From: Acidobacteriota bacterium
Lineage (GTDB): Bacteria > Acidobacteriota > Aminicenantia > UBA2199
Direction of reading: 5' to 3'
Length of the DNA stretch: 64,000 nucleotides
Assembly (NCBI GenBank): GCA_022711715.1
Contig: JAKLEC010000001.1
Span: forward strand, 112,860-176,859
Both the position numbers and the translations under genes were made by a program. Position 1 is the stretch's first letter; every line of letters begins with the position of its first letter. Below the pieces are notes generated by a model. The model was not told the DNA's origin. It did no database searches and saw only the letters and a list, made by a program, of their open reading frames with translations. This document shows positions 3 to 61,028 of the stretch, piece after piece.

Positions 3-662
3 ATGGAGGAGATGAAGTCCGACATGGCCGGCGCCGCCGCCGTGCTGGGGGCGGTCAACGCCGCCGCCCGCCTGCGCCTGGGCCTGAAGGTGACGGCGCT
101 GGCGCCGCTGGCCGAGAACCTGCCCGGCCGCCGCGCCTACAAGCCGGGGGACGTCATCGCCTACGCCAACGGCAAGACGGTGGAGATCGTCAATACCGAC
201 GCCGAGGGCCGGCTGATCCTGGCCGACGCCCTGATCGCGGCCGCCCGGCGCCGGCCCGGCCGCATCGTCGAGCTCTCCACCCTCACCGGCGCCATCGTCA
301 CCGCCCTGGGCGACTCCTACGCCGGGCTCTTCTGCCGCGACCGCCGGCTGGCGGCCGCGCTGCTGCGTGCCGGCGAGGCCAGCGGCGAGCGGCTGTGGCA
401 GCTGCCCCTGCCCGAGGAATACCGCGAGAGCATCGCCTCCAAGGTCGCCGATCTGAAGAACGCCAACTACAACGGCGCCTCATCGGTCAAGGCCGGGCTG
501 TTCCTCGCCGAGTTCGCCGGACGCGTCCCCTTCGCCCACATCGACATCGCCGGCACGGCGTTCCTGGGCAAGCCCAACGCCTTCTATGCCGCCGAAGGCG
601 CCACCGGCTTCGGCGTGCGCCTGCTGGTCGAGTTCATGAGGGAGCTGGCCCGCTCTAAATGA
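3..662 (+). CDS. pepA: Leucyl aminopeptidase (peptidase M17), C-terminal catalytic part; 5' end outside window
   Basis: ORF open to the left edge. M17 signatures MKSDMAGAAAV and NTDAEGRLILADAL. GC3-rich codon usage. Confidence 0.9.
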   Translation: MEEMKSDMAGAAAVLGAVNAAARLRLGLKVTALAPLAENLPGRRAYKPGDVIAYANGKTVEIVNTDAEGRLILADALIAAARRRPGRIVELSTLTGAIVTALGDSYAGLFCRDRRLAAALLRAGEASGERLWQLPLPEEYRESIASKVADLKNANYNGASSVKAGLFLAEFAGRVPFAHIDIAGTAFLGKPNAFYAAEGATGFGVRLLVEFMRELARSK

Positions 663-685
663 ACATGGAGTCGCGGCCAGCGGGA

Positions 686-795
686 CTTGGCGTACGGCGT
701 ACGGCAAACGGTGGACGGCAAAAGGCAATTTCAGGATCAGGTGCTGGCATGGCAGTTGCCGTATGCCCTACGCCGTATGCCGTATGCCGAGCTCA
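686..795. repeat. GCCGTAY-type hairpin element (empty form)
   Basis: Left arm ggcgtac ggcgtac ggcaaac ggtggac ggcaaaa (689-728). Right arm tgccgta tgcccta cgccgta tgccgta tgccgagc (757-792). About 25-nt loop. Confidence 0.85.
745..760 (+). promoter_or_regulatory. Sigma54-type -24/-12 element TGGCAT-N5-TTGCC
   Basis: TGGCATGGCAGTTGCC has the canonical GG-N10-GC spacing, about 60 nt upstream of ATG 820. It sits in the loop of a repeat hairpin, so it could be fortuitous. Confidence 0.4.
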
Positions 796-819
796 TCGTC
801 GAGGTCCTGAGAGGATAAG

Positions 820-1305
820 ATGAATGAACTGTACAGCGTCCACTCCCTGATCCGCGGCTTCGCCTACGAAGGAACGACGTACGAGGAGGTGAAGGTCGCC
901 TGGTTCGTCGCCGGGCGCGCCGCCCCGCTCGTCCCCTTTGAACAGGCCATCCAGGACTGCACCCGCCTCTCCGCCAGCGAGCGCGCTTTCCCCGAGGGCT
1001 ACGTCCGCGAGTTTTTCGGCCGCGAAGAGGCGCAGGCGCTGAAGGCCTACCTGGATCGCCGCCGCGAACTGACGACCTTCATCGAGCCCGTCGAGTTGCC
1101 GGTCATGGCCAACGCCAGCGGCTGCCGGAGGCTGCCGCGCGGCCACGGCGCCGACTTCCTGGCCCTGCACCGCGAGAAGGGATACTCCCTGCCGTTCAAG
1201 GTCGAGGGCTATTTCAGCGTGCGCCTGGCGGCTCCCCGCGTGCAGGGCGACGACCGCCGGACGGAAATCGCGGCAAGGGCTGCCAAAAAATCGAGTGACA
1301 AGTGA
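820..1305 (+). CDS. Hypothetical protein, 161 aa, no family recognised
   Basis: ATG preceded by GAGAGGA. GC3-rich codons. TGA stop lies inside a GAGTGAC heptamer array. Sigma54-like motif about 60 nt upstream. Confidence 0.6.
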   Translation: MNELYSVHSLIRGFAYEGTTYEEVKVAWFVAGRAAPLVPFEQAIQDCTRLSASERAFPEGYVREFFGREEAQALKAYLDRRRELTTFIEPVELPVMANASGCRRLPRGHGADFLALHREKGYSLPFKVEGYFSVRLAAPRVQGDDRRTEIAARAAKKSSDK

Positions 1306-1326
1306 CGAGTTATGAGTGACGAGGCA
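1292..1326. repeat. GAGTGAC-type heptamer array (4-5 units)
   Basis: gagtgac aagtgac gagttat gagtgac gaggcat. TGA occurs at 1296, 1303, 1313 and 1317, covering all three frames. Contains the stop codon of CDS 820-1305. Confidence 0.85.
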
Positions 1327-1337
1327 TAAAAAGACTA

Positions 1338-1427
1338 ATCGATCGTAATTCGTGATTCGGTAGAAAAACAGCGACGGAGCGAACTATTGCTGTTGCGAAT
1401 TACGAATTACGCCTTACGAATTACGAT
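1338..1427. repeat. CGTRATT-armed hairpin element, copy 1
   Basis: atcgatCGTAATTCGTGATTCGg - core aaaaACAGCGAcggagcgaactatTGCTGTT - gCGAATTACGAATTACGccttACGAATTACGat. Confidence 0.9.
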
Positions 1428-1429
1428 GC

Positions 1430-1924
1430 TTACTGCTCGATGCCGCCGAAATCGTCGTCCGACAGCGACTCGAACCAGCGGTCGATGCGCTCCTGGCCGG
1501 TGAGGCAGTTGCTGAACACGTCGGCCAGCACCGACGTCTCCAGCACCTGGCGGGAAACGTAGATCTTGGCGTGGTTCTTGAGCGCCAGCGCTACGGCGTC
1601 GGAGGGACGGCAGTCGATCACCCGCTCCTGGCCGTTCTTCTCGATGTGCAACTCGGCGTAATAGGTGTTCTCGACGATATCGGTGATGATGACCTTGGCC
1701 AGGATGGCCTCCAGGTCGCGCATGATGTTGCGCAGCAGGTCGTGGGTCATGGGCCGGGGCGAGCAGATGTTCTCCAGCTCCATGGCGATGGCATTGGCCT
1801 CGTTCATGCCGATCCAGATGGGGATGACCTTCTTCTCGTCGCGGGCCTTGAGCATCATCACTGGCGACTTGGAAACCTGGTCCATGATCAGGCCGACGAG
1901 GTTGACTTCGATGAACGGTTCCAT
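1430..1924 (-). CDS. Bifunctional nuclease family protein (BFN/DUF151)
   Basis: Matches the BFN pattern (VIPIWIGMNEANAIAMELE...PRPMTHDLL...RPSDAVALAL). ATG at 1924 is preferred over the in-frame GTG at 1933 because a TTGACA-17-TATATA promoter ends at 1935. Confidence 0.85.
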   Translation of the reverse strand: MEPFIEVNLVGLIMDQVSKSPVMMLKARDEKKVIPIWIGMNEANAIAMELENICSPRPMTHDLLRNIMRDLEAILAKVIITDIVENTYYAELHIEKNGQERVIDCRPSDAVALALKNHAKIYVSRQVLETSVLADVFSNCLTGQERIDRWFESLSDDDFGGIEQ

Positions 1925-1934
1925 GTTCCCCACT

Positions 1935-1963
1935 TATATAGTATCAATTCGCGGTTTTGTCAA
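1935..1963 (-). promoter_or_regulatory. Sigma70-type promoter TTGACA-17-TATATA for the BFN nuclease gene
   Basis: Minus strand reads TTGACAaaaccgcgaattgatacTATATA. The -10 box ends 10 nt before ATG 1924, giving a very short leader. Confidence 0.6.
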
Positions 1964-2023
1964 TTTGGAAGGAAACAAGCGGTCGTGACGGTGGCAGCGG
2001 TAGAAGAGGCATTGACTGAAGCG

Positions 2024-2117
2024 ATCGCAATTCGTAAGGCGCAATTCGTAATTCGCAACAGCGATAGTTCGCTCCGTCGCTGTTTTTCTGCCGAATCGCG
2101 AATTCCGATCAATCGAT
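2024..2117. repeat. CGTRATT-armed hairpin element, copy 2 (inverted relative to copy 1)
   Basis: Reverse complement of 1338-1427 aligns with about 6 mismatches and one small indel over about 90 nt (hand alignment). Confidence 0.9.
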
Positions 2118-2127
2118 TTTCCTGATT

Positions 2128-2156
2128 CGTCACGCGTCACGCGTTTCGCGTCACGA
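2128..2156. repeat. GTCACGC heptamer array (complement of GCGTGAC), 4 units
   Basis: gtcacgc gtcacgc gtttcgc gtcacga. Contains the mazG stop codon on the minus strand. Confidence 0.85.
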
Positions 2157-2930
2157 TGGCTCGGTCAGCTCCGTCTTGGACCTCTGCCACAGCGCCTCCA
2201 TCTCCGCCAGCGAGGCGGAGGCGACGTCCCGGCCGCCGCGGCGCAGCTCGGCCTCGATGAAGCGGAAGCGGGCGGTGAACTTGCGGTTGGCGCGCGCCAA
2301 AGCGAACTCGGGGTTGATGTCCAGCAGCCGCGCCACGTTGGCCACGGCGAACAGCAGGTCGCCGACCTCGTCCTCGGCCGCATGGCGGCGGCCGGCGGCG
2401 ATCTCGGCGCGCAGCTCGGCGCACTCCTCGGCGACCTTCTCCAGCGCCTGCCCGGCGTCGCCCCAGTCGAAGCCGACCCCCGAGGCCTGCGAGGCGATGC
2501 GCTTGGCCAGCAGCAGCGCCGGCATGGAGGCCGGGTAATCGGAGATGACGCTGGCCTTGTTTTTCTCGGCGATCTTGATTTTCTCCCAGTTGGCCTTGAC
2601 CTCGTCGGCGTTGTCGACCTTCGTCCCGGCAAAGATATGCGGGTGGCGGCGCACCAGCTTCTCGACGATGCCGGCGGCGACGTCGTCGATGGTGAAGCGT
2701 CCCTCCTCGGCGGCGATCTGGGACAGGAAAACGATCTGCAGCAGCAGGTCGCCCAGCTCCTCGCGCACGGCCCGCGGGTCGTTGCCGTCGATGGCCTCGA
2801 GCAGCTCGTGAGCCTCTTCCAGGACGTACTCCTTGAGCGAGGCGGGGGTCTGCTTCAGGTCCCAGGGGCAGCCGCGCTTGGGATGGCGCAGCTTCTTCAT
2901 GACGGCGACCAGGCGGTTGAACGGCTTCAT
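2151..2930 (-). CDS. mazG: Nucleoside triphosphate pyrophosphohydrolase MazG
   Basis: Two MazG repeats (EEAHELLEAI, GDLLLQIVF; EECAELRAEI, GDLLFAVANV). ATG 2930 chosen because the upstream ATG 2966 lies inside the predicted -10 box. Stop lies inside a GCGTGAC array. Confidence 0.9.
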   Translation of the reverse strand: MKPFNRLVAVMKKLRHPKRGCPWDLKQTPASLKEYVLEEAHELLEAIDGNDPRAVREELGDLLLQIVFLSQIAAEEGRFTIDDVAAGIVEKLVRRHPHIFAGTKVDNADEVKANWEKIKIAEKNKASVISDYPASMPALLLAKRIASQASGVGFDWGDAGQALEKVAEECAELRAEIAAGRRHAAEDEVGDLLFAVANVARLLDINPEFALARANRKFTARFRFIEAELRRGGRDVASASLAEMEALWQRSKTELTEPS

Positions 2931-2961
2931 GGCGGTGTCCCCCGCAGCGCGGGGAAGCGAT

Positions 2962-2990
2962 ATCATAGCCCGGAACGGCCCTTATGGCAA
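2962..2990 (-). promoter_or_regulatory. Sigma70-type promoter TTGCCA-17-TATGAT for mazG
   Basis: Read on the minus strand. About 30 nt upstream of ATG 2930. Confidence 0.5.
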
Positions 2991-3015
2991 GGGCAGCAGA
3001 TCTGTCCACAATGCT

Positions 3016-3225
3016 CGTGGCAAGTGACGCGTGACGAGCGACAAGTAGCAGCACGGGAACGAGCGATCGTAATTCGTGATTCGTAATTCGTGATTCGGAA
3101 CGGCAATAGTTCGGCTCATGCTGTTCCTAACACAAACACGAACCCGAACACGGAGAAAGGCTTTTCCCGCCCTCTCTTCCCTCATTCCTCCCTCCCTCTT
3201 CCCTTTATTTTCCCTGTGATTTTGA
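3016..3225. repeat. Composite mosaic: GTGAC array - linker - CGTRATT array - AACGGCAATAG core - CACAAA/CACGAA array - CTTCCC-rich arm
   Basis: Read directly from the sequence. The first four modules are colinear with 46067-46237. Confidence 0.85.
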
Positions 3226-3250
3226 ATCTGGAACTCCCCTGTGGTATAGT
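3222..3250 (+). promoter_or_regulatory. Sigma70-type promoter TTGAAT-17-(TGg)TATAGT, leaderless configuration
   Basis: The -10 box ends at 3250 and the ATG is at 3258. Confidence 0.55.
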
Positions 3251-3257
3251 GGGGTCC

Positions 3258-3536
3258 ATGGCCAAGGGGATCGCTTATCCGGAGCAACGGGACATCCGCG
3301 CCGTCATCATCCTGCTCGCCACCCAGGGGATGATCCGCCTGGGCGAGATCCCCGACCCGCTCAGCGGCCAGCCCGCCCTTGACGCCGACGGGGGGCGCTT
3401 CTTCATCGACCTGCTCGAGGAGCTCAAGCGCAAGACGGCGGGCAACCTGCTTCCCCAGGAAGCGGCCTTCCTTGACGACGTGCTGGGCAACCTGCGCCAG
3501 GTGCTGGCGCGCAAGACGGAGGCCGCCCGTGGCTAG
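3258..3536 (+). CDS. DUF1844 domain protein
   Basis: DUF1844-like sequence (LATQGMIRLGEIPDP...FFIDLLEELKRKTAGNL). ATG begins 7 nt after a TGgTATAGT extended -10, so this is a leaderless candidate. Confidence 0.75.
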   Translation: MAKGIAYPEQRDIRAVIILLATQGMIRLGEIPDPLSGQPALDADGGRFFIDLLEELKRKTAGNLLPQEAAFLDDVLGNLRQVLARKTEAARG

Positions 3537-5304: not shown

Positions 5305-6280
5305 GGGCACGCTGCGCGAGTTCAAGGTCCCGGACATCCTGCAGCTCATCTCGCTGCAGAAGAAGACCGGCATCCTGACCTTCAACAGCCAGGAAGGCTT
5401 CATCACCCTCATCTTCGAGGACGGCTACATCATCGGCATCGACGCCTTTCCCAAGAAGCTGGAGATGCGCGTGGGCAACGTCTTCGTCAAGCAGGAGATC
5501 ATCAGCGAGGAGATGCTGCAGCGGGCGCTGGCCATCCAGAAGCGCACCAGCCAGAAGGTCGGCGAGATCCTCATCGGCATGGGGCTGATCGACGAGAAGA
5601 TCATCCCCGAGGTGCTCAAGATCCAGGCCACGCAGATCGTGCTGTCGCTGTTCAACTGGAAGAAGGGCGAGTACAACTTCAAGGTCCTGGACTACGTCGA
5701 CAAGGAGCTGCGCCTGTTCACCCCCATCGCCGTCGACAACCTGATCATGGAAGGGGTGCAGATGCTCGACGAGTGGCCGCTGATCAAGAAGGCCATCCCG
5801 TCGGAGGACATCGTCTTCGAGCCGGTGTTCCTGGGCAGCAAGAAGGTCGCCCTGGTTTCGGAGTACGACGACGAGGCCCCCGCCGGGGACGGCAACACCC
5901 TGCACATGACCGAGACCGAGGTCAACCTGCTCAAGCACATCAACGGCCGCAACTCGGTCCGGGACATCGTCGAGCTGGGGCAGTTCACCGAGTACAAGGT
6001 CTACAAGACCCTGTACAACCTCCTCAACAAGGGGCTGATGAAGAAGAAGGTGAAGACCGAGATCCAGGAGATCGAGGAGCGCAAGCGCTTCGAGGACCTG
6101 GAGCAGGAGAACGCCCGCAAGTGCGGCCTGATCGGCCGGCTGCTGCTGGCGGCGCTGGCCCTGCTGCTGTTGCTCACCTTCTTCACGCCGCTGCGCCCCT
6201 TCCGCCGCGACAACATGCTCTTGCGGGCGCCGGAGTACCGCCAGCGCCTGCCCCTCTCCCTGCCTCGCGCCGAGCGATGA
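5294..6280 (+). CDS. DUF4388 (PatA-N-like) domain protein with C-terminal TM segment
   Basis: N-terminus FKGTLREFKVPDILQLISLQKKTGILTF is typical of DUF4388. ATG 5294 overlaps the upstream stop. Confidence 0.75.
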   Translation: MAFKGTLREFKVPDILQLISLQKKTGILTFNSQEGFITLIFEDGYIIGIDAFPKKLEMRVGNVFVKQEIISEEMLQRALAIQKRTSQKVGEILIGMGLIDEKIIPEVLKIQATQIVLSLFNWKKGEYNFKVLDYVDKELRLFTPIAVDNLIMEGVQMLDEWPLIKKAIPSEDIVFEPVFLGSKKVALVSEYDDEAPAGDGNTLHMTETEVNLLKHINGRNSVRDIVELGQFTEYKVYKTLYNLLNKGLMKKKVKTEIQEIEERKRFEDLEQENARKCGLIGRLLLAALALLLLLTFFTPLRPFRRDNMLLRAPEYRQRLPLSLPRAER

Positions 6281-14599: not shown

Positions 14600-14784
14600 C
14601 TATCGTGACGCGTAACGCGTGACGCGTGACGCGGAACAGCCTGAGCCTGATCACCAAAGAGTGCAGCCATCAAATCAAAGAGGGTAATTCTGCAGATAAT
14701 TTTTCAGGAAACTTTATAGATTACAAGAATAGATCTTCCTTTTGCTGCTACTTGTCACGCGTCACGCGTTACGCGTCACGATAG
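14600..14784. repeat. Perfect 31-bp inverted repeat of GCGTRAC heptamers enclosing a 123-nt AT-rich insert
   Basis: 14600-14630 ctatcgtgacgcgtaacgcgtgacgcgtgac is the exact reverse complement of 14754-14784. The right arm contains the stop of CDS 14776-15951. Confidence 0.95.
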
Positions 14785-18069: not shown

Positions 18070-18123
18070 GGCGTTCTTGTAACAGAAAAGAAGGCCTGGG
18101 TCAATCGCAGGGCTTTCAGGAAA

Positions 18124-18214
18124 GTGATAGTGGTAGTGATAGTGATAGTAACAGCATCAACGGCAATTTGTGTTAGTGTTTGTGTTAGGAACAGCAATAA
18201 GAGAGCAGCTCTTT
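18124..18214. repeat. GTGRTA array - AACAGCA junction - GTGTTN array - GGAACAGCAATAAG core
   Basis: gtgata gtggta gtgata gtgata (18124-18150). gtgtta gtgttt gtgtta gg (18170-18189). Confidence 0.85.
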
Positions 18215-18231
18215 CCGAAACTAGTAGGACT

Positions 18232-18513
18232 AAAGCACCAAGTTCCAAGCATCAAATTCCAAATAAACGCCAAGCACCAATGACCAAATAACCAAAACCA
18301 AGAAAAGTGATTGTGATAGTGTTAGTGTTTGTTAGTGCACTCAAACGATTTCTAATGGAATTATGAGATCAATAGAATGTATTTATGACCGAAACTCAAT
18401 TCATCTAAAGGCAAATTGAAGAGCCCTTTACATTGTTCTAAAGAGGATTTCGTTGCGGGTTTTTCCTAACACTATCACTAACACCATCACTTTCTTTGGT
18501 GCTTGGTGCTTGG
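18232..18513. repeat. Nested hairpin: CACCAAG-type and GTGWTA-type arms around an AT-rich insert of about 125 nt
   Basis: Outer arms caccaagttccaagc...gccaagcaccaa (18236-18305) versus ctttggtgcttggtgcttgg (18493-18513). Inner arms gtgattgtgatagtgttagtgtttgttagtg (18307-18337) versus cctaacactatcactaacaccatcac (18465-18490). Confidence 0.8.
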
Positions 18514-19357: not shown

Positions 19358-19461
19358 TTTTTTTACAAACCCGGATTCATCGACACATTGAATCTCAATA
19401 TGGATTTTTTTGCTATTTCCTTTGCCGTGCATCGTTCATAAAAGGTATTTTACTTTTGCTT

Positions 19462-19700
19462 CACCATACGCCGTATGCCGTACGCCGTGCGCCAAGGGCA
19501 TTTTCCTCTTTCATCACCGTATGCCGTATGCCGTACGCCCAGGGCATTTTCCTCTTTCATCACCGTACGCCGTATGCCGTACGCCCAGGGCATTTTCCTC
19601 TTTCTTCACCGTACGCCGTATGCCGTACACCGTGCGCCCAGGGCATTTTCCTCTTTCTTCACCGTACGCCGTATGCCGTACGCCGTGCGCCCAGCTCTCC
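19462..19700. repeat. Tandem repeat, 4.5 copies of a 46/53-bp unit (GCCGTAY heptamers + CAGGGCATTTTCCTCTTTCWT)
   Basis: Copies at 19462-19514 (53 nt), 19515-19560 (46), 19561-19606 (46), 19607-19659 (53) and 19660-~19700 (partial). The length difference is exactly one heptamer. Confidence 0.92.
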
Positions 19701-28788: not shown

Positions 28789-28819
28789 AGTCCCGGCCGG
28801 CGGCAAAGACGGAAAACAA

Positions 28820-28963
28820 GTGATAGTGGTAGTGGTAGTGATAGTAGCGAGCACGAAAATGCCCTATAGGAAAGTGCTATTCGGATGTTTCCCATGATAC
28901 CAACAAGGTCTTATTAGGTCGGCACATGCAGTTCCTACCACTACCACTATCACTACCACTAAG
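28820..28963. repeat. GTGRTA / TAYCAC inverted arrays enclosing an 86-nt insert
   Basis: Left arm gtgatagtggtagtggtagtgatagtag (28820-28847). Right arm cctaccactaccactatcactaccactaag (28934-28963). Confidence 0.88.
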
Positions 28964-29078: not shown

Positions 29079-30284
29079 ATGAAGATACTGGTCATCAATT
29101 GCGGGAGTTCGTCGATCAAGTTCCAGCTGCTCAACATGGAAACGGGGCAGGTCCTGGCCAAGGGCCTGCTGGAGCGCATCGCCATCCCCGGCTCGGTGCT
29201 GAACTACTACCAGGGCGAGACCAAGCACGTCGTCAACCGCAACGTGGCCAATCACGAGGAGGGAGTGCAGCTCATCGTCAGCCTGCTCACCGACCCCGCC
29301 AAGGGCGTCATCCGCGACAAGAGCGAGATCTTCGCCATCGGCCACCGCGTGGTCCACGCCGGCGAGAAGTTCAACGGCACCGTACCCATCACCCCGGCCG
29401 TGCTGGCCGCGCTCAAGGAGTGCATCCCGCTGGCGCCGCTGCACAACCCGCCCAACATCACCGGCATCGAGGCCTGCCAGAAGATCCTGCCCGGCATTCC
29501 CATGGCCGGCACTTTCGACACCGCCTTCCACCAGACCATGCCGGAGAAGGCCTACATATACCCCCTGCCCTACGAGTACTACCGCGAGCACAAGATCCGC
29601 CGCTACGGCTTCCACGGCACCTCGCACTTCTACGTGGCCAAGCAGGGGGCCAAGGCCATGGGCCGCAGGCTGGAGGAGCTGAAGATCATCACCTGCCACC
29701 TGGGAAACGGCTCGTCGATGGCCGCCATTCGCAACGGCGTCTCGGTCGACACCTCGATGGGCTACACGCCGCTGGAGGGGCTGCCCATGGGCACGCGCTG
29801 CGGCGACCTCGACCCGGCCATCCCGCTGGTGCTGCAGCGCACGCTCGGGCTGAGCGGCGAGCAGGTCGACGCCGTGCTCAACCGCAAGAGCGGCATGCTG
29901 GGCATCTCCGGCGTCTCCTCCGACATGCGCGACATCAACGACCAGGCCGCCGCCGGCCATGCCCAGGCCCGGCTGGCGCTGGAGATCTTCGCCTACCGCA
30001 TCAAGAAGTACATCGGCGCGTACATCGCCGCCATGAACGGCGCGGACCTGGTCATCTTCACCGCCGGCATCGGCGAGCGCGGCCGCAGGGAACGCGAGCT
30101 GATCCTGAGCGACATGGAGTTCCTGGGCATCGAGTTCGACGCCGCGGCCAACCATGAGGCCTTCGGCAGGCTGGGAACCATCTCCAAGCCCGGCTCGCGC
30201 GTCCGCGTCATGGTCGTGCCCACCAACGAGGAGCTGGAGATCGCCGAGCAGACGCTGAAGGTCATTCAAAACAACAAGAAATAG
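29079..30284 (+). CDS. ackA: Acetate kinase
   Basis: MKILVINCGSSSIKFQL N-terminus and full-length AckA similarity. TAG stop is the first unit of a (TAGTGA)n array. Confidence 0.97.
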   Translation: MKILVINCGSSSIKFQLLNMETGQVLAKGLLERIAIPGSVLNYYQGETKHVVNRNVANHEEGVQLIVSLLTDPAKGVIRDKSEIFAIGHRVVHAGEKFNGTVPITPAVLAALKECIPLAPLHNPPNITGIEACQKILPGIPMAGTFDTAFHQTMPEKAYIYPLPYEYYREHKIRRYGFHGTSHFYVAKQGAKAMGRRLEELKIITCHLGNGSSMAAIRNGVSVDTSMGYTPLEGLPMGTRCGDLDPAIPLVLQRTLGLSGEQVDAVLNRKSGMLGISGVSSDMRDINDQAAAGHAQARLALEIFAYRIKKYIGAYIAAMNGADLVIFTAGIGERGRRERELILSDMEFLGIEFDAAANHEAFGRLGTISKPGSRVRVMVVPTNEELEIAEQTLKVIQNNKK

Positions 30285-30400
30285 TGATAGTGATAGTGTT
30301 AGTGTTAGGAACAGCAATAGCAGAACTTTTTTCATCCTGACACGTTTCGGATCAGGGGCTTTCACTTTTACCTTTTTCCTTTTACCTTTTGCCTTTTGCC
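30282..30400. repeat. (TAGTGA)n / GTGTTA array - GGAACAGCAATAG core - CTTTTNC heptamer array
   Basis: The array starts with the ackA stop codon. cttttac ctttttc cttttac cttttgc cttttgc at 30361-30400. Confidence 0.85.
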
Positions 30401-30482
30401 CGATGCGGTCACGAAGCCCCGGAGGCTATTCAATCCCCGACCGCGGGGCAATGACGCCCCACGGGCCATTCAGTGTAAATAA

Positions 30483-30678
30483 GCTCGGCGTACGGCTGAC
30501 GGCATACGGCAACAGCACGTCTGCGATAGATAGCGCTGCGCAACTAGTGACGGACAAATTACCTCAGCGTATGGCTTTGACAATCTTGGATTGAAAAACT
30601 CATCGAAATTCAGGATTGCGCAGCAATGTCCCACTTTGGCTTTACCGTACGCCGTATGCCGTACGCCGTATGCCAAGC
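30483..30678. repeat. GCCGTAY-type hairpin element (filled form, insert of about 120 nt)
   Basis: Left arm gctcggcgtacggctgacggcatacggcaacagc. Right arm ggctttaccgtacgccgtatgccgtacgccgtatgccaagc. Inner 9-bp inverted repeat gctgcgcaa (30534) / ttgcgcagc (30616). Confidence 0.85.
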
Positions 30679-38160: not shown

Positions 38161-38261
38161 CTATCGTAATTCGTAAGGCGTAATTCGTGATTCGTAGCGG
38201 CAAAAGGCCGATCCGTTGCGGTTCTTTTTCCGAATTCCGAATTACGAATCACGAGTGATCG
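38161..38261. repeat. CGTRATT-armed hairpin element, copy 3
   Basis: ctatCGTAATTCGTaaggCGTAATTCGTGATTCGtagcggcaaaaggccgatccgttgcggttctttttcCGAATTCCGAATTACGAATCACGagtgatcg. Confidence 0.9.
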
Positions 38262-39246: not shown

Positions 39247-39340
39247 CGATCGTAATTCGTTAGACGTAATTCGTAATTCGTAACCGCAACAGATCGATCC
39301 GTTGCAGTTCCTCTTCCGAATTACGAATCAGGAGTGATCG
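39247..39340. repeat. CGTRATT-armed hairpin element, copy 4
   Basis: Same architecture and orientation as 38161-38261. Core ccgcaacagatcgatccgttgcag. Confidence 0.9.
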
Positions 39341-39367
39341 TTCCCCCTGTAGTTCTTTTGGCAGGGG

Positions 39368-39471
39368 CTATCGCAATTCGTCAGGCGTAATTCATAATTC
39401 ATAGCCGCAAAAGACTGGTCTATTGCCGCTTTTCTTCCGAATTTCGAACCACGAATTACGAATTACGGATC
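39368..39471. repeat. CGTRATT-armed hairpin element, copy 5 (more diverged)
   Basis: ctatcgcaattcgtcaggcgtaattcataattcatagccgcaaaagactggtctattgccgcttttcttccgaatttcgaaccacgaattacgaattacggatc. Confidence 0.85.
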
Positions 39472-46066: not shown

Positions 46067-46294
46067 GATATCGTGACGCGTAACGCGTGACAAGTAACCG
46101 CGTCAGGACGAGCGCTCGTGATTCGTCATTCGTAATTCGTGATTCGCAACAGCAATGGAACGGTTCATGCTATTCGAACACTCTCTCGTCATTGATTCGC
46201 TTCAGGGCTTTCCTAACACGAACACAAACACGAACACATAGTTAGATCGTTCGTTCTTTTTGGCTTTCCTACCACTATCACTACCACTACCACT
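46067..46294. repeat. Composite mosaic: GCGTRAC array - linker - CGTRATT array - CAACAGCAATGG core - CACGAA/CACAAA array - TAYCAC array
   Basis: Colinear with 3016-3153. The final taccac array continues into the conserved 3' flank of the sulfatase-like gene. Confidence 0.85.
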
Positions 46295-46310
46295 CAGAGC
46301 TCGGTACGTT

Positions 46311-48667: not shown

Positions 48668-48689
48668 CGAGATACCAGCTAAGCAATCA

Positions 48690-48875
48690 GTGATAGTGGT
48701 AGTGGTAGTGATTGCAACCGCATTGAAGATCGATCTCATGAGGCTTTCTACGATGATCAACAGCGAAATACTTTGCTTTCAAGCCTCAATTTATCTTTAA
48801 ATGCACCATCCTCTGACCGGCAGCAGCAGGAGATCGCCATGTGCTGCTACTACCACGATCACTACCACTACCACT
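48690..48875. repeat. GTGRTA / TAYCAC inverted arrays enclosing a 132-nt insert
   Basis: Left arm gtgatagtggtagtggtagtgattg (48690-48714). Right arm ctactaccacgatcactaccactaccact (48847-48875). Confidence 0.88.
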
Positions 48876-48891
48876 TGGAGCTCGGCAATTT

Positions 48892-54540: not shown

Positions 54541-54889
54541 CTTTCTGAGTGTCAGTGTCCGTGTCAGCAAGAAAGAACTTTCAGCAACCTATGTGTTCGT
54601 GTTAGTGTTTGTGTTAGTGTTAGGAAAGCCAGGATCATGAACACCGTCGAGATATAAGTGGTAGTGATAGTGATAGTGGTAGGAGCGGCATGAACCGATC
54701 TAATGCCGTTGCGGATCACGAATTACGAATCACAATGGGTTATTTGCTGTTCCTCGTCACGCGTCACGCGTCACGATTGTTTTGGACAGATCGGGTGTCA
54801 GTGATAGTGTTAGGAACAGCAATCAACGAAATCCTATCAAGAACCGAGCAAAGGGCTCTTCACTTTTACCTTTTTCCTTTTACCTTTCG
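54541..54889. repeat. Super-mosaic containing seven array types in about 350 bp
   Basis: GTGTCMG (54541-54570), GTGTTN (54593-54624), GTGRTA (54658-54683), small hairpin cggcat...atgccg, CACGAAT (54713-54732), GTCACGC (54755-54777), GTGATA/GTGTTA + GGAACAGCAAT (54796-54827), CTTTTNC (54858-54889). Confidence 0.88.
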
Positions 54890-57983: not shown

Positions 57984-58104
57984 TTTGTGTTAGTGTTAGT
58001 GTTTGTGTTAGGAAAGCCAAACAGCGAACTTGTGTTCGTGTGTGTTAGGAAAGCCTTGGGACGAGCTAACTGAATTAGTGATAGTGGTAGTGATCGTGAT
58101 AGTG
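57984..58104. repeat. GTGTTN arrays (x2, each ending GTTAGGAAAGCC) plus a GTGRTA array
   Basis: tttgtgttagtgttagtgtttgtgttaggaaagcc...gtgttcgtgtgtgttaggaaagcc...gtgatagtggtagtgatcgtgatagtg. Confidence 0.85.
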
Positions 58105-58166
58105 AAAAAAAATAGCAAGAGAATTCGTTAGGTTCAGGACCTCCGGTTCACGAAAAATGGAAGAAG

Positions 58167-58194
58167 AAAAAAAAGGCGGCCTCAGCGGGCCGCC
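58167..58194 (-). terminator. Intrinsic terminator about 230 nt downstream of the prolyl oligopeptidase stop
   Basis: Minus strand reads GGCGGCC-CGCUGA-GGCCGCC followed by U8. The intervening 3' region is filled with repeat arrays. Confidence 0.7.
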
Positions 58195-58219
58195 CATTTC
58201 ATATTACTATGCTCGCGTT

Positions 58220-58416
58220 CTCATCACGCGTTACACGTCACGCAGGCTCGTCATTGCAGTTCGTTTTGCGGCAGCGGTACACCGAGCCCTGCTTTTCTTA
58301 CCGTACACCGTATGCCGCGGCGGTCCCGTCAGGGCCGCCGGCCGTATGCCAAACTCAGGCAAGTTCTCTTTTCTTGCCGTACGCCGTACGCCGTATACCG
58401 TATGCCGTATGCCGAG
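58220..58416. repeat. GTCACGC-like and GCCGTAY arrays with a GC hairpin, in the prolyl oligopeptidase 3' region
   Basis: catcacgcgttacacgtcacgc; ccgtacaccgtatgccg; hairpin cggcggtcccgtcagggccgccg; gccgtacgccgtacgccgtataccgtatgccgtatgccgag. Confidence 0.8.
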
Positions 58417-60641: not shown

Positions 60642-61028
60642 GGCGTAAGGCTCAAGGCGCAAGGTACAGGGCAACTGCACTGAATGGTGCAGATCGTAAA
60701 AGGGCAGTTACCCTATGCCCTGCGCCCTACGCCGTATGCCGAGCCGGGCGGCCTCGGGCCGCTATTCGCGCCCGATTGGCGCAAGGCTCAAGGCGCAAGG
60801 TGCAAGGGAACTGCGCTGAATGCTACAGTTCGTGAAAGGGCAGTAACCCTATGTCGTACGCCGTATGCCGAGCTGGGCGGCCTTCGGCCGCTATTCGCGC
60901 CCGATTGGCGCAAGGCTCAAGGCGTAAGGTATAGGGTAAAGGCACTGAATGGTTCAGATCGGGAAAGGGCCGCTACCCTACGCCCTATGCCGTACGCCTT
61001 ATGCCGAGCTGGGCGGCCTTCGGCCGCC

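Follow-up and report, generated by a model that had tools for sequence, protein, structure and literature searches.

What has given rise to the symmetric arrangement of repeats around the gene for a bifunctional nuclease (BFN) in an Aminicenantes genome? In the 64,000-nt stretch of contig JAKLEC010000001.1 analyzed here (hereafter the window, with positions counted from its first letter), the BFN gene lies between orf820, which encodes a conserved hypothetical protein, and mazG. It is bracketed by two inverted copies of a 90-nt hairpin element and, on their outer sides, by two arrays of GTGAC-type heptamers, the whole forming a symmetric structure of ~865 bp. The original prediction, made from the sequence of this stretch, left two readings, namely that both elements are 3′ appendages of the flanking genes or that the nuclease gene is a cassette delimited by inverted repeats. 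We favor a different explanation, to which we assign a probability of roughly 0.7: the structure is the footprint of an inversion that occurred by homologous recombination between the inverted repeats and became fixed in the lineage.

The inverted repeat pair is real. The repeat search returned two arms, here called L and R (Table 1), which are 90 nt long, 92% complementary (~93% in the original prediction) and separated by 596 nt. Compared base by base, L and R differ by seven mismatches, six of them transitions, and the longest stretches of full identity measure 26, 20 and 13 nt. Past the 90-nt arms, weaker homology with a 4-nt indel runs on for a few more bases, up to ~2121. Both arms have the same canonical layout, in which a TCGTAAT array is followed by an AACAGC..GCTGTT core and a CGAATTA array; this layout is read on the minus strand in L and on the plus strand in R. 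As RNA, element L has a minimum free energy (MFE) of -30.8/-23.2 kcal/mol. The original prediction did not question the uniqueness of the pair, and thereby missed a third, partial copy at 3015-3125 as well as the rest of the ~9 TCGTAAT-type copies present in the window. Nevertheless, L and R are closest to each other, sharing 92% identity versus at most 83% with the other full-length copies.

Is the orientation of the BFN gene between these repeats typical? Using the BFN protein, we collected 15 relatives, comprising eight loci from GTDB species representatives (L001-L008) and seven JGI metagenome contigs (L024-L030), whose BFN proteins are 67-96% identical to that of the window at the amino acid level. 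The order pepA(+) orf820(+) BFN(+) mazG(-), which we regard as ancestral, is kept by each flanking gene reached in all 15 (pepA is reached in 13, orf820 in 11, mazG in 13 and a TPR gene on the plus strand in 8). Thus, in the relatives BFN points the same way as orf820 and is convergent with mazG, whereas in the window it occupies the opposite strand. The alignments delimit the reversed segment closely. Window positions 1431-1965 align in reverse to 6497-5963 of L001, the closest outgroup, with 95.9% nucleotide identity, and they are also reversed relative to L002-L008. By contrast, positions 600-1324 and 2132-2315 align forward to the relatives, so that both flanks are colinear; on the left, orf820 matches L001 5001-5725 at 84.8% nucleotide identity. 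The two breakpoint intervals, 1325-1430 and 1966-2131, contain L and R, respectively. The BFN segment is also the best-conserved DNA of the locus, since its 95.9% identity to L001 compares with 85-88% for the flanks.

The promoter of the BFN gene is part of the reversed segment. The TTGACA and TATATA hexamers named in the original prediction (-35 at 1963-1958 and -10 at 1940-1935 on the minus strand, with 17-nt spacing) belong to a conserved block, ATTGACAAA-N-TTGATACTATATAAGT, which directly precedes BFN in each of the eight GTDB relatives that were read (L001-L008). Since the promoter moved along with BFN, the inversion was probably of little effect on expression. What has changed is the context: after the flip, BFN stands in tandem behind mazG and is convergent with orf820.

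The flipped state is not confined to the window. We looked for strains by exact-protein look-up, which gave matches with the 164-aa BFN that starts at ATG and no match with the 167-aa version that starts at GTG. The flipped state recurs in three metagenome-assembled genomes (MAGs) and at least six metagenome contigs, which come from independent projects and are 98.6-100% identical to the window. The MAGs are GCA_016294905.1 and GCA_016294925.1 (98.6% at the nucleotide level) and GCA_035913195.1 (100%); the contigs include Logan SRR16002673 and SRR20818708 and ENA ERZ27257506, ERZ27257507 and ERZ925090. Several of the flipped contigs run right through L or R into unique sequence at either end, and L or R is present in its parental form in L009-L015, L022 and L031. 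Element L is identical in the two 98.6% strains, L009 and L010. Element R, on the other hand, is 87% identical between the window and L009, each version of R being ~92% identical to L. Taken together, these data suggest that the inversion is fixed in a species-level lineage. If it was a single event, it would have taken place once the L001 lineage had split off but before L009 and L010 diverged from the window.

The same strains reveal variation in the repeats themselves. Between the window and L009 or L010, the adjacent genes differ by ~1-2%, and divergence is far higher in the spacer at 1978-2140, which harbors R and the array at the mazG end. In L013 (ENA ERZ27257506), the 5′ arm of L carries an extra 14 nt, that is, two heptamers (TCGTACTTCGTGAT), at window position ~1342, so that even near-identical strains differ in the copy number of the array. 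A hairpin made of CCGTACG arrays at 692-785, in the pepA-orf820 spacer, is missing as an exact unit from L009 (GCA_016294905.1) and present in L010 and L001. This could represent a deletion polymorphism of hairpin length or, possibly, an assembly collapse. Finally, public short-read contigs of the species often end within arrays (at window positions 1396-1434, 2128/2135 and 3095), and the arrays thus systematically fragment short-read assemblies of the lineage.

If L and R mark the breakpoints of an inversion, where do the outer arrays come from? Both were noted in the original prediction, and the right one is also called by TRF. The first of its readings, 3′ appendages, turned out to be right for these two arrays, which correspond in position to arrays lying over the orf820 and mazG stops in relatives, but it does not fit the 90-nt elements and it overlooked the inversion. 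The left array is the positional homologue of L001 5693-5724, with similar arrays in L004 and L007; the right array is colinear with L001 from 6834 onward and with L002-L004. In L001 each of them has a pairing partner. For the GTGAC array at the end of orf820 (5693-5724), this is a GTCAC array at 5910-5945, shortly before the BFN promoter; for the GTCAC array at the mazG stop, it is a second GTGAC array, located past the end of BFN. The latter pairing, with a GTGAC array ~30 nt past the BFN stop, is seen in L001-L004 and L024. More generally, a hairpin with an array stem spans the BFN-mazG spacer in L001-L005, L024 and L026 and, in a weaker form, in L006, L007, L028 and L029. L030 showed none, and in L008 the comparison is prevented by a run of N. 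The unit type of this hairpin (GTGAC, GTTCGA or TAGTGA) varies by lineage. The fact that its position is kept while its sequence turns over hints at a structural role, for example that of a bidirectional terminator.

Judging by these alignments, the left array of the window probably once formed the outer left arm of an array-stem hairpin that preceded BFN in the ancestor and has since been orphaned, and the right array is likely the orphan right arm of the ancestral BFN-mazG hairpin. A trace of the lost pairing may persist in the inverted spacer, where a single GTCAC-type unit (TCGTGACG, 1983-1990) moves together with the promoter, as seen by eye in comparison with L001 and L007. This unit is probably a remnant of an ancestral array, and its place beside the promoter is what would be expected if the left breakpoint fell in the loop of an ancestral GTGAC hairpin such as that of L001 and L007. 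The symmetry of the outer arrays would then have been inherited from two ancestral hairpins and would not reflect a single bracketed device.

These observations can be combined into the following scenario. BFN is a resident, syntenic gene of the Aminicenantes and has its own promoter. In the ancestral order it points the same way as orf820 and is convergent with mazG, and the spacers on either side carry hairpin-forming modules made of tandem 6/7-mer arrays. Two opposed TCGTAAT-type copies would have come to lie around it, one in the loop of the upstream hairpin before the BFN promoter and the other just past the BFN stop; we infer that both were in place before the flip. Recombination between these copies would have flipped the promoter and BFN, the likeliest route being RecA-type homologous recombination. 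At the time of the exchange, the copies would have been closer to each other than they are at present, with 92% identity and a 26-nt core. The arrays of the GTGAC type over the ends of orf820 and mazG would have stayed put, and they would consequently look like symmetric outer brackets today.

Table 1. Positions of the genes, repeats and other features discussed in the text (window coordinates)
Feature	Position	Strand	Basis and remarks
pepA (M17 peptidase C-terminus)	3-662		Pfam
orf820, conserved hypothetical coding sequence, left colinear flank	820-1305	+	No Pfam match
GTGAC-type heptamer array (GAGTGAC AAGTGAC GAGTTAT GAGTGAC)	1292-1326	+	Overlaps orf820 stop; family D6 of the repeat search
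Element L	1338-1427	-	TCGTAAT-type hairpin; 2 nt past BFN stop; left breakpoint interval
26-nt core identical in L and R (AGAAAAACAGCGACGGAGCGAACTAT)	1362-1387	none	Crossover interval of hybrid contig L019
BFN coding sequence	1430-1933 from GTG, or to 1924 from ATG	-	Pfam BFN_dom, E=1.9e-38
Inverted segment (BFN coding sequence, promoter and ~58 nt of upstream spacer)	1431-2023	-	Nucleotide alignment, Pfam, conserved promoter block
Element R	2024-2113	+	Inverted copy of L, canonical reading on plus; right breakpoint interval
GTCAC (CGTCACG) heptamer array	2128-2156	-	Overlaps mazG stop; TRF 2128-2155, period 7, 4.0 copies
mazG coding sequence, right colinear flank	2151-2966	-	Pfam MazG, E=4.1e-38; colinear in all relatives reaching mazG
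Third, partial copy of the family, upstream of mazG	3015-3152	+	GTGAC array 3015-3045; TCGTAAT array and core 3064-3125; TAACAC-unit 3′ arm 3127-3152
Family hairpins, examples	689-791, 14603-14781, 18122-18492, 28818-28962, 30279-30676, 38163-38256
Family hairpins, further examples	39249-39470, 46070-46296, 48688-48877, 54547-54889, 57986-58416

Several findings weigh against this scenario. The longest identical run of 26 nt is marginal for RecA-dependent exchange. The state that should have preceded the inversion, with an L/R pair around a BFN gene in the ancestral orientation, occurs in none of the 15 relatives, which sample the lineage sparsely, and L001 has no TCGTAAT element at either position. 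The repeats could even be the product of the inversion and not its substrate. As to the elements themselves, any function is at most predicted from sequence. Searches against Rfam gave no matches for the whole window at the gathering threshold and none at E<=1 within 600-3400, and the same interval contains no terminator-like site, defined as a GC-rich stem with an immediate U tract. A consensus fold of nine TCGTAAT-type elements retained just the outer array stem, with compensatory change in one of 15 pairs. Lastly, one contig, L019, displays the ancestral junction; if that junction is real, the orientation is not simply fixed.

Contig L019 deserves a closer look, as it is central to the strongest of the alternatives. 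This contig (JGI 3300009776, 1541 nt, 99.7% identical to the window) runs from pepA through orf820, the GTGAC array and an element into the BFN promoter, all in the ancestral orientation. Its element follows L up to the core and then the reverse complement of R, and is an exact hybrid that switches within the 26-nt identical run. L019 may be a genuine product of re-inversion through exchange in the core or, equally, a chimera that a de Bruijn assembler made over the 26 shared bases. Fold energy was tried as a means of separating parental from recombinant elements and was dropped, the L019-type hybrid (-31.4 kcal/mol) lying close to L and R (-29.7 and -30.0 kcal/mol).

Taken at face value, L019 would mean that the inversion is active and reversible: L and R would be recombination sites between which BFN is still flipping today, possibly by site-specific exchange in the core, and re-inversion of the window state would produce precisely such a join of orf820 to the BFN promoter. 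The flipped state of L009 and L010, at 98.6% identity, would then need recurrent switching in the strain tree. However, L019 is a single hybrid against at least nine flipped contigs (a tally at the level of contigs). All other junction-crossing contigs are flipped and carry parental L or R, with no reciprocal hybrid among those found, and a shared run of 26 nt can yield the same join as a de Bruijn-graph chimera when k or coverage is low. A search of the JGI metagenome collection with the 26-nt core returned no matches even though L019 contains it, so the collection searched evidently lacks such short contigs. Moreover, the promoter moves with the gene, which means that expression would not be switched; no invertase or recombinase was found among the window ORFs scanned; and the arms retain seven fixed differences and have not been homogenized. 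We therefore consider it doubtful that AACAGC...GCTGTT is a recombination site still in use, with L019 as a genuine revertant. Were this nonetheless the case, exchange in the core would also shuffle half-elements between loci, explaining the hairpins with mixed arm types described below, and the Aminicenantes array hairpins would constitute an undescribed class of recombinogenic intergenic elements with no recombinase adjacent to them.

A somewhat less likely alternative is that the second copy was made by the rearrangement itself: a single resident hairpin element would have set off either template switching at a quasi-palindrome or an intramolecular event resembling replicative transposition, which inverted the adjacent segment and left the second copy behind in inverted form. 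This would account for the outgroup L001, which is devoid of the element on either side of BFN, and for L002 and L003, in which TCGTAAT elements occur only upstream of BFN. It also agrees with L and R being mutually nearest relatives, as well as with the general dynamics of the elements (the added 14 nt in L013, the loss of the hairpin at 692-785 in L009, and tandem amplification). The 8% divergence between L and R carries no signal in either direction. Against such an event, the borders of L and R show no direct or inverted target-site duplication, no transposase was found among the window open reading frames (ORFs) scanned, and a TCGTAAT-like remnant beside the mazG-end array in L002 and L003 suggests that modules were present in both spacers long ago. 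The last point is in keeping with the preferred scenario, in which inversion followed the establishment of both copies.

The cassette reading of the original prediction captured one true feature, in that the segment between the repeats is indeed inverted relative to 15 of 15 relatives. A mobile cassette or composite transposon is nonetheless highly improbable: the inverted-repeat bracket and the self-contained promoter and gene would suit one, but all 15 relatives, the majority of them without such a repeat pair, carry BFN at this very locus (flanked by pepA and mazG in the 13 of 15 that reach them), the gene has its own conserved promoter, its segment is the best conserved of the locus, and there is neither a target-site duplication at the borders nor a transposase in the 40 window ORFs. 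The original prediction had itself suggested looking for such duplications, and none was seen next to L, R or the outer arrays; the order orf820-BFN-mazG, whose conservation it had named as a potential counterargument, is kept in the relatives that carry orf820. Similarly improbable is a mis-resolved orientation of the segment during assembly, for which inverted repeats are a classic cause and to which the breaking of short-read contigs in arrays might point, since the arms share no more than 26 identical bases and at least five independent projects, several assembled with k=127-141, provide contigs spanning L or R that are all flipped.

The constant orientation of BFN in the relatives is not matched by constancy of the surrounding DNA. 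Insertions of 2.7-3.9 kb separate pepA from orf820 in L002 (2411-5177) and L005 (664-4524). In L005 (5036-5785) and L006 (5084-5830), an extra ORF, short-chain dehydrogenase-like by eye, separates BFN from orf820 or pepA. The locus is thus an indel hotspot in relatives although BFN keeps its orientation. The four closest GTDB loci are labeled Candidatus Aminicenantes or Acidobacteria. The MAGs of L004, L007 and L008 are titled 'uncultured Clostridia bacterium' despite synteny of the Aminicenantes type and BFN identities of 67-85%, and are probably mislabeled.

How unusual are L and R in their own genome? Neither reading of the original prediction placed them in a genome-wide family, yet the 90-nt element is a member of a modular family of hairpins, built from arrays of 6- and 7-mers, that extends over the whole window. 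With a simple detector, we found 40 arrays of period 6 or 7 in 8.8 kb of intergenic DNA, corresponding to 4.5 per kb versus 0.29 per kb in coding sequence; shuffled spacers would be expected to contain 0.1 arrays. At least one array is present in 19 of the 26 spacers of at least 100 nt. The units include CGTGACG, TCGTAAT, CCGTACG, AGTGAT, GTGTTA and CTTTTAC, and there is also an 11-mer of the GGGAAGA type. Read in the G-rich orientation, the arrays typically end in a common junction, (R)GRAAC(A/G)GCA(AT). Such half-elements usually face each other in pairs, with the arrays forming a long stem and the junctions its top, and in some elements the two arms are of differing unit types (e.g. 3064-3152 and 30279-30400). 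In the larger elements, RNA MFE reaches -60 to -88 kcal/mol. Whole composite units may be arranged in tandem, as at 19447-19694 (five copies of ~46-53 nt) and 60642-61027 (three copies of ~130 nt); L002 has three tandem copies of a ~90-nt composite unit at 5653-5953. The GC content is 0.65-0.80 in genes versus 0.43-0.52 in repeat-bearing spacers.

The gene content of the window is that of a housekeeping region, with pepA, mazG, tig, clpP, lon, engB, rho, ackA, TonB-dependent receptors and rpoC. It has no tRNA genes. No Pfam domain of a recombinase or transposase was detected in the 40 of 41 candidate ORFs scanned in the 64 kb, and no RAYT (Y1 transposase) was found among them.

The array hairpins may act locally as transcript-end or terminator-like structures. 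After L, a T-run on the minus strand starts ~10 nt past the stem. Other roles were considered and set aside. A conserved structured RNA is not supported, given the one covarying pair among 15. Over 20 elements, RNA folding energy showed no consistent preference for the sense strand relative to the direction of the flanking genes. A role of C-rich arrays as rut sites for Rho was rejected, as several arrays are found in divergent spacers, ahead of promoters.

What is new here, and what is not? As an event, the inversion is of a standard, repeat-mediated kind, set in a genome that is unusually rich in repeats, and it reveals neither a new mobile element nor a new regulatory switch. It does provide a natural example of a sub-kilobase inversion of a single gene, seeded by 90-nt hairpin repeats, for which metagenomic data alone document the ancestral state, the breakpoints and the fixation. 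The broader point concerns the Aminicenantes, an uncultivated phylum, where the packing of most intergenic DNA with modular 6/7-mer array hairpins represents an undescribed genome feature; we found no description of array hairpins in Aminicenantes in the literature searched. Since such hairpins can create or mimic structural variants, they matter for the binning and comparison of Aminicenantes MAGs.

Among known systems, the event resembles inversions between inverted dispersed repeats such as insertion sequences (IS), REP elements or rrn operons. In both, opposed copies lie at the two breakpoints, outgroups have the segment the other way round, a dedicated recombinase is lacking nearby and the state is fixed in a lineage. 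Here, however, the segment is ~0.6 kb long and contains one gene, and the repeats are 90-nt hairpins of heptamer arrays. There is also a likeness to invertons of the PhaseFinder type (PMC11892184; bioRxiv 10.1101/2023.03.11.532203), as short inverted repeats flank a sub-kilobase segment and L019 suggests the other orientation. In contrast to invertons, the promoter (1935-1963, inside the segment) and the gene invert together, leaving no ON/OFF logic, and no invertase was found in the window.

As for the repeats, they share with REP/BIME and REPIN elements of enterobacteria and pseudomonads and with BOX elements of Streptococcus pneumoniae the character of mosaic, modular extragenic hairpins that also occur between convergent genes and can seed rearrangements. 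They differ in that their stems are tandem arrays of short units instead of a single palindrome, and in having no conserved GTAG head motif; unlike for REP and REPIN, no RAYT/Y1 transposase was seen in the window. The STRR family is characterized by specific unit sequences and a cyanobacterial host, and the units found here (GTGAC, TCGTAAT, CCGTACG) do not match it. The closest known kind is that of intergenic heptameric simple sequence repeats. An excess of heptamers, at times arranged as inverted pairs, has been noted in certain bacterial intergenic regions, and their function is unknown (PMC4692102). The GGGAATC repeats of Xanthomonas and GGGGAYT repeats of Nostoc (PMC4692102), together with STRR of Calothrix and Nostoc, likewise consist of tandem 7-nt intergenic units whose number varies between close relatives. 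What sets the present repeats apart from them is the Aminicenantes host, the coexistence of many 6- and 7-mer unit types that are not of the G-quadruplex type, and the architecture of the half-elements, which end in a common (R)GRAACAGCA junction and usually face a partner to make a long hairpin.

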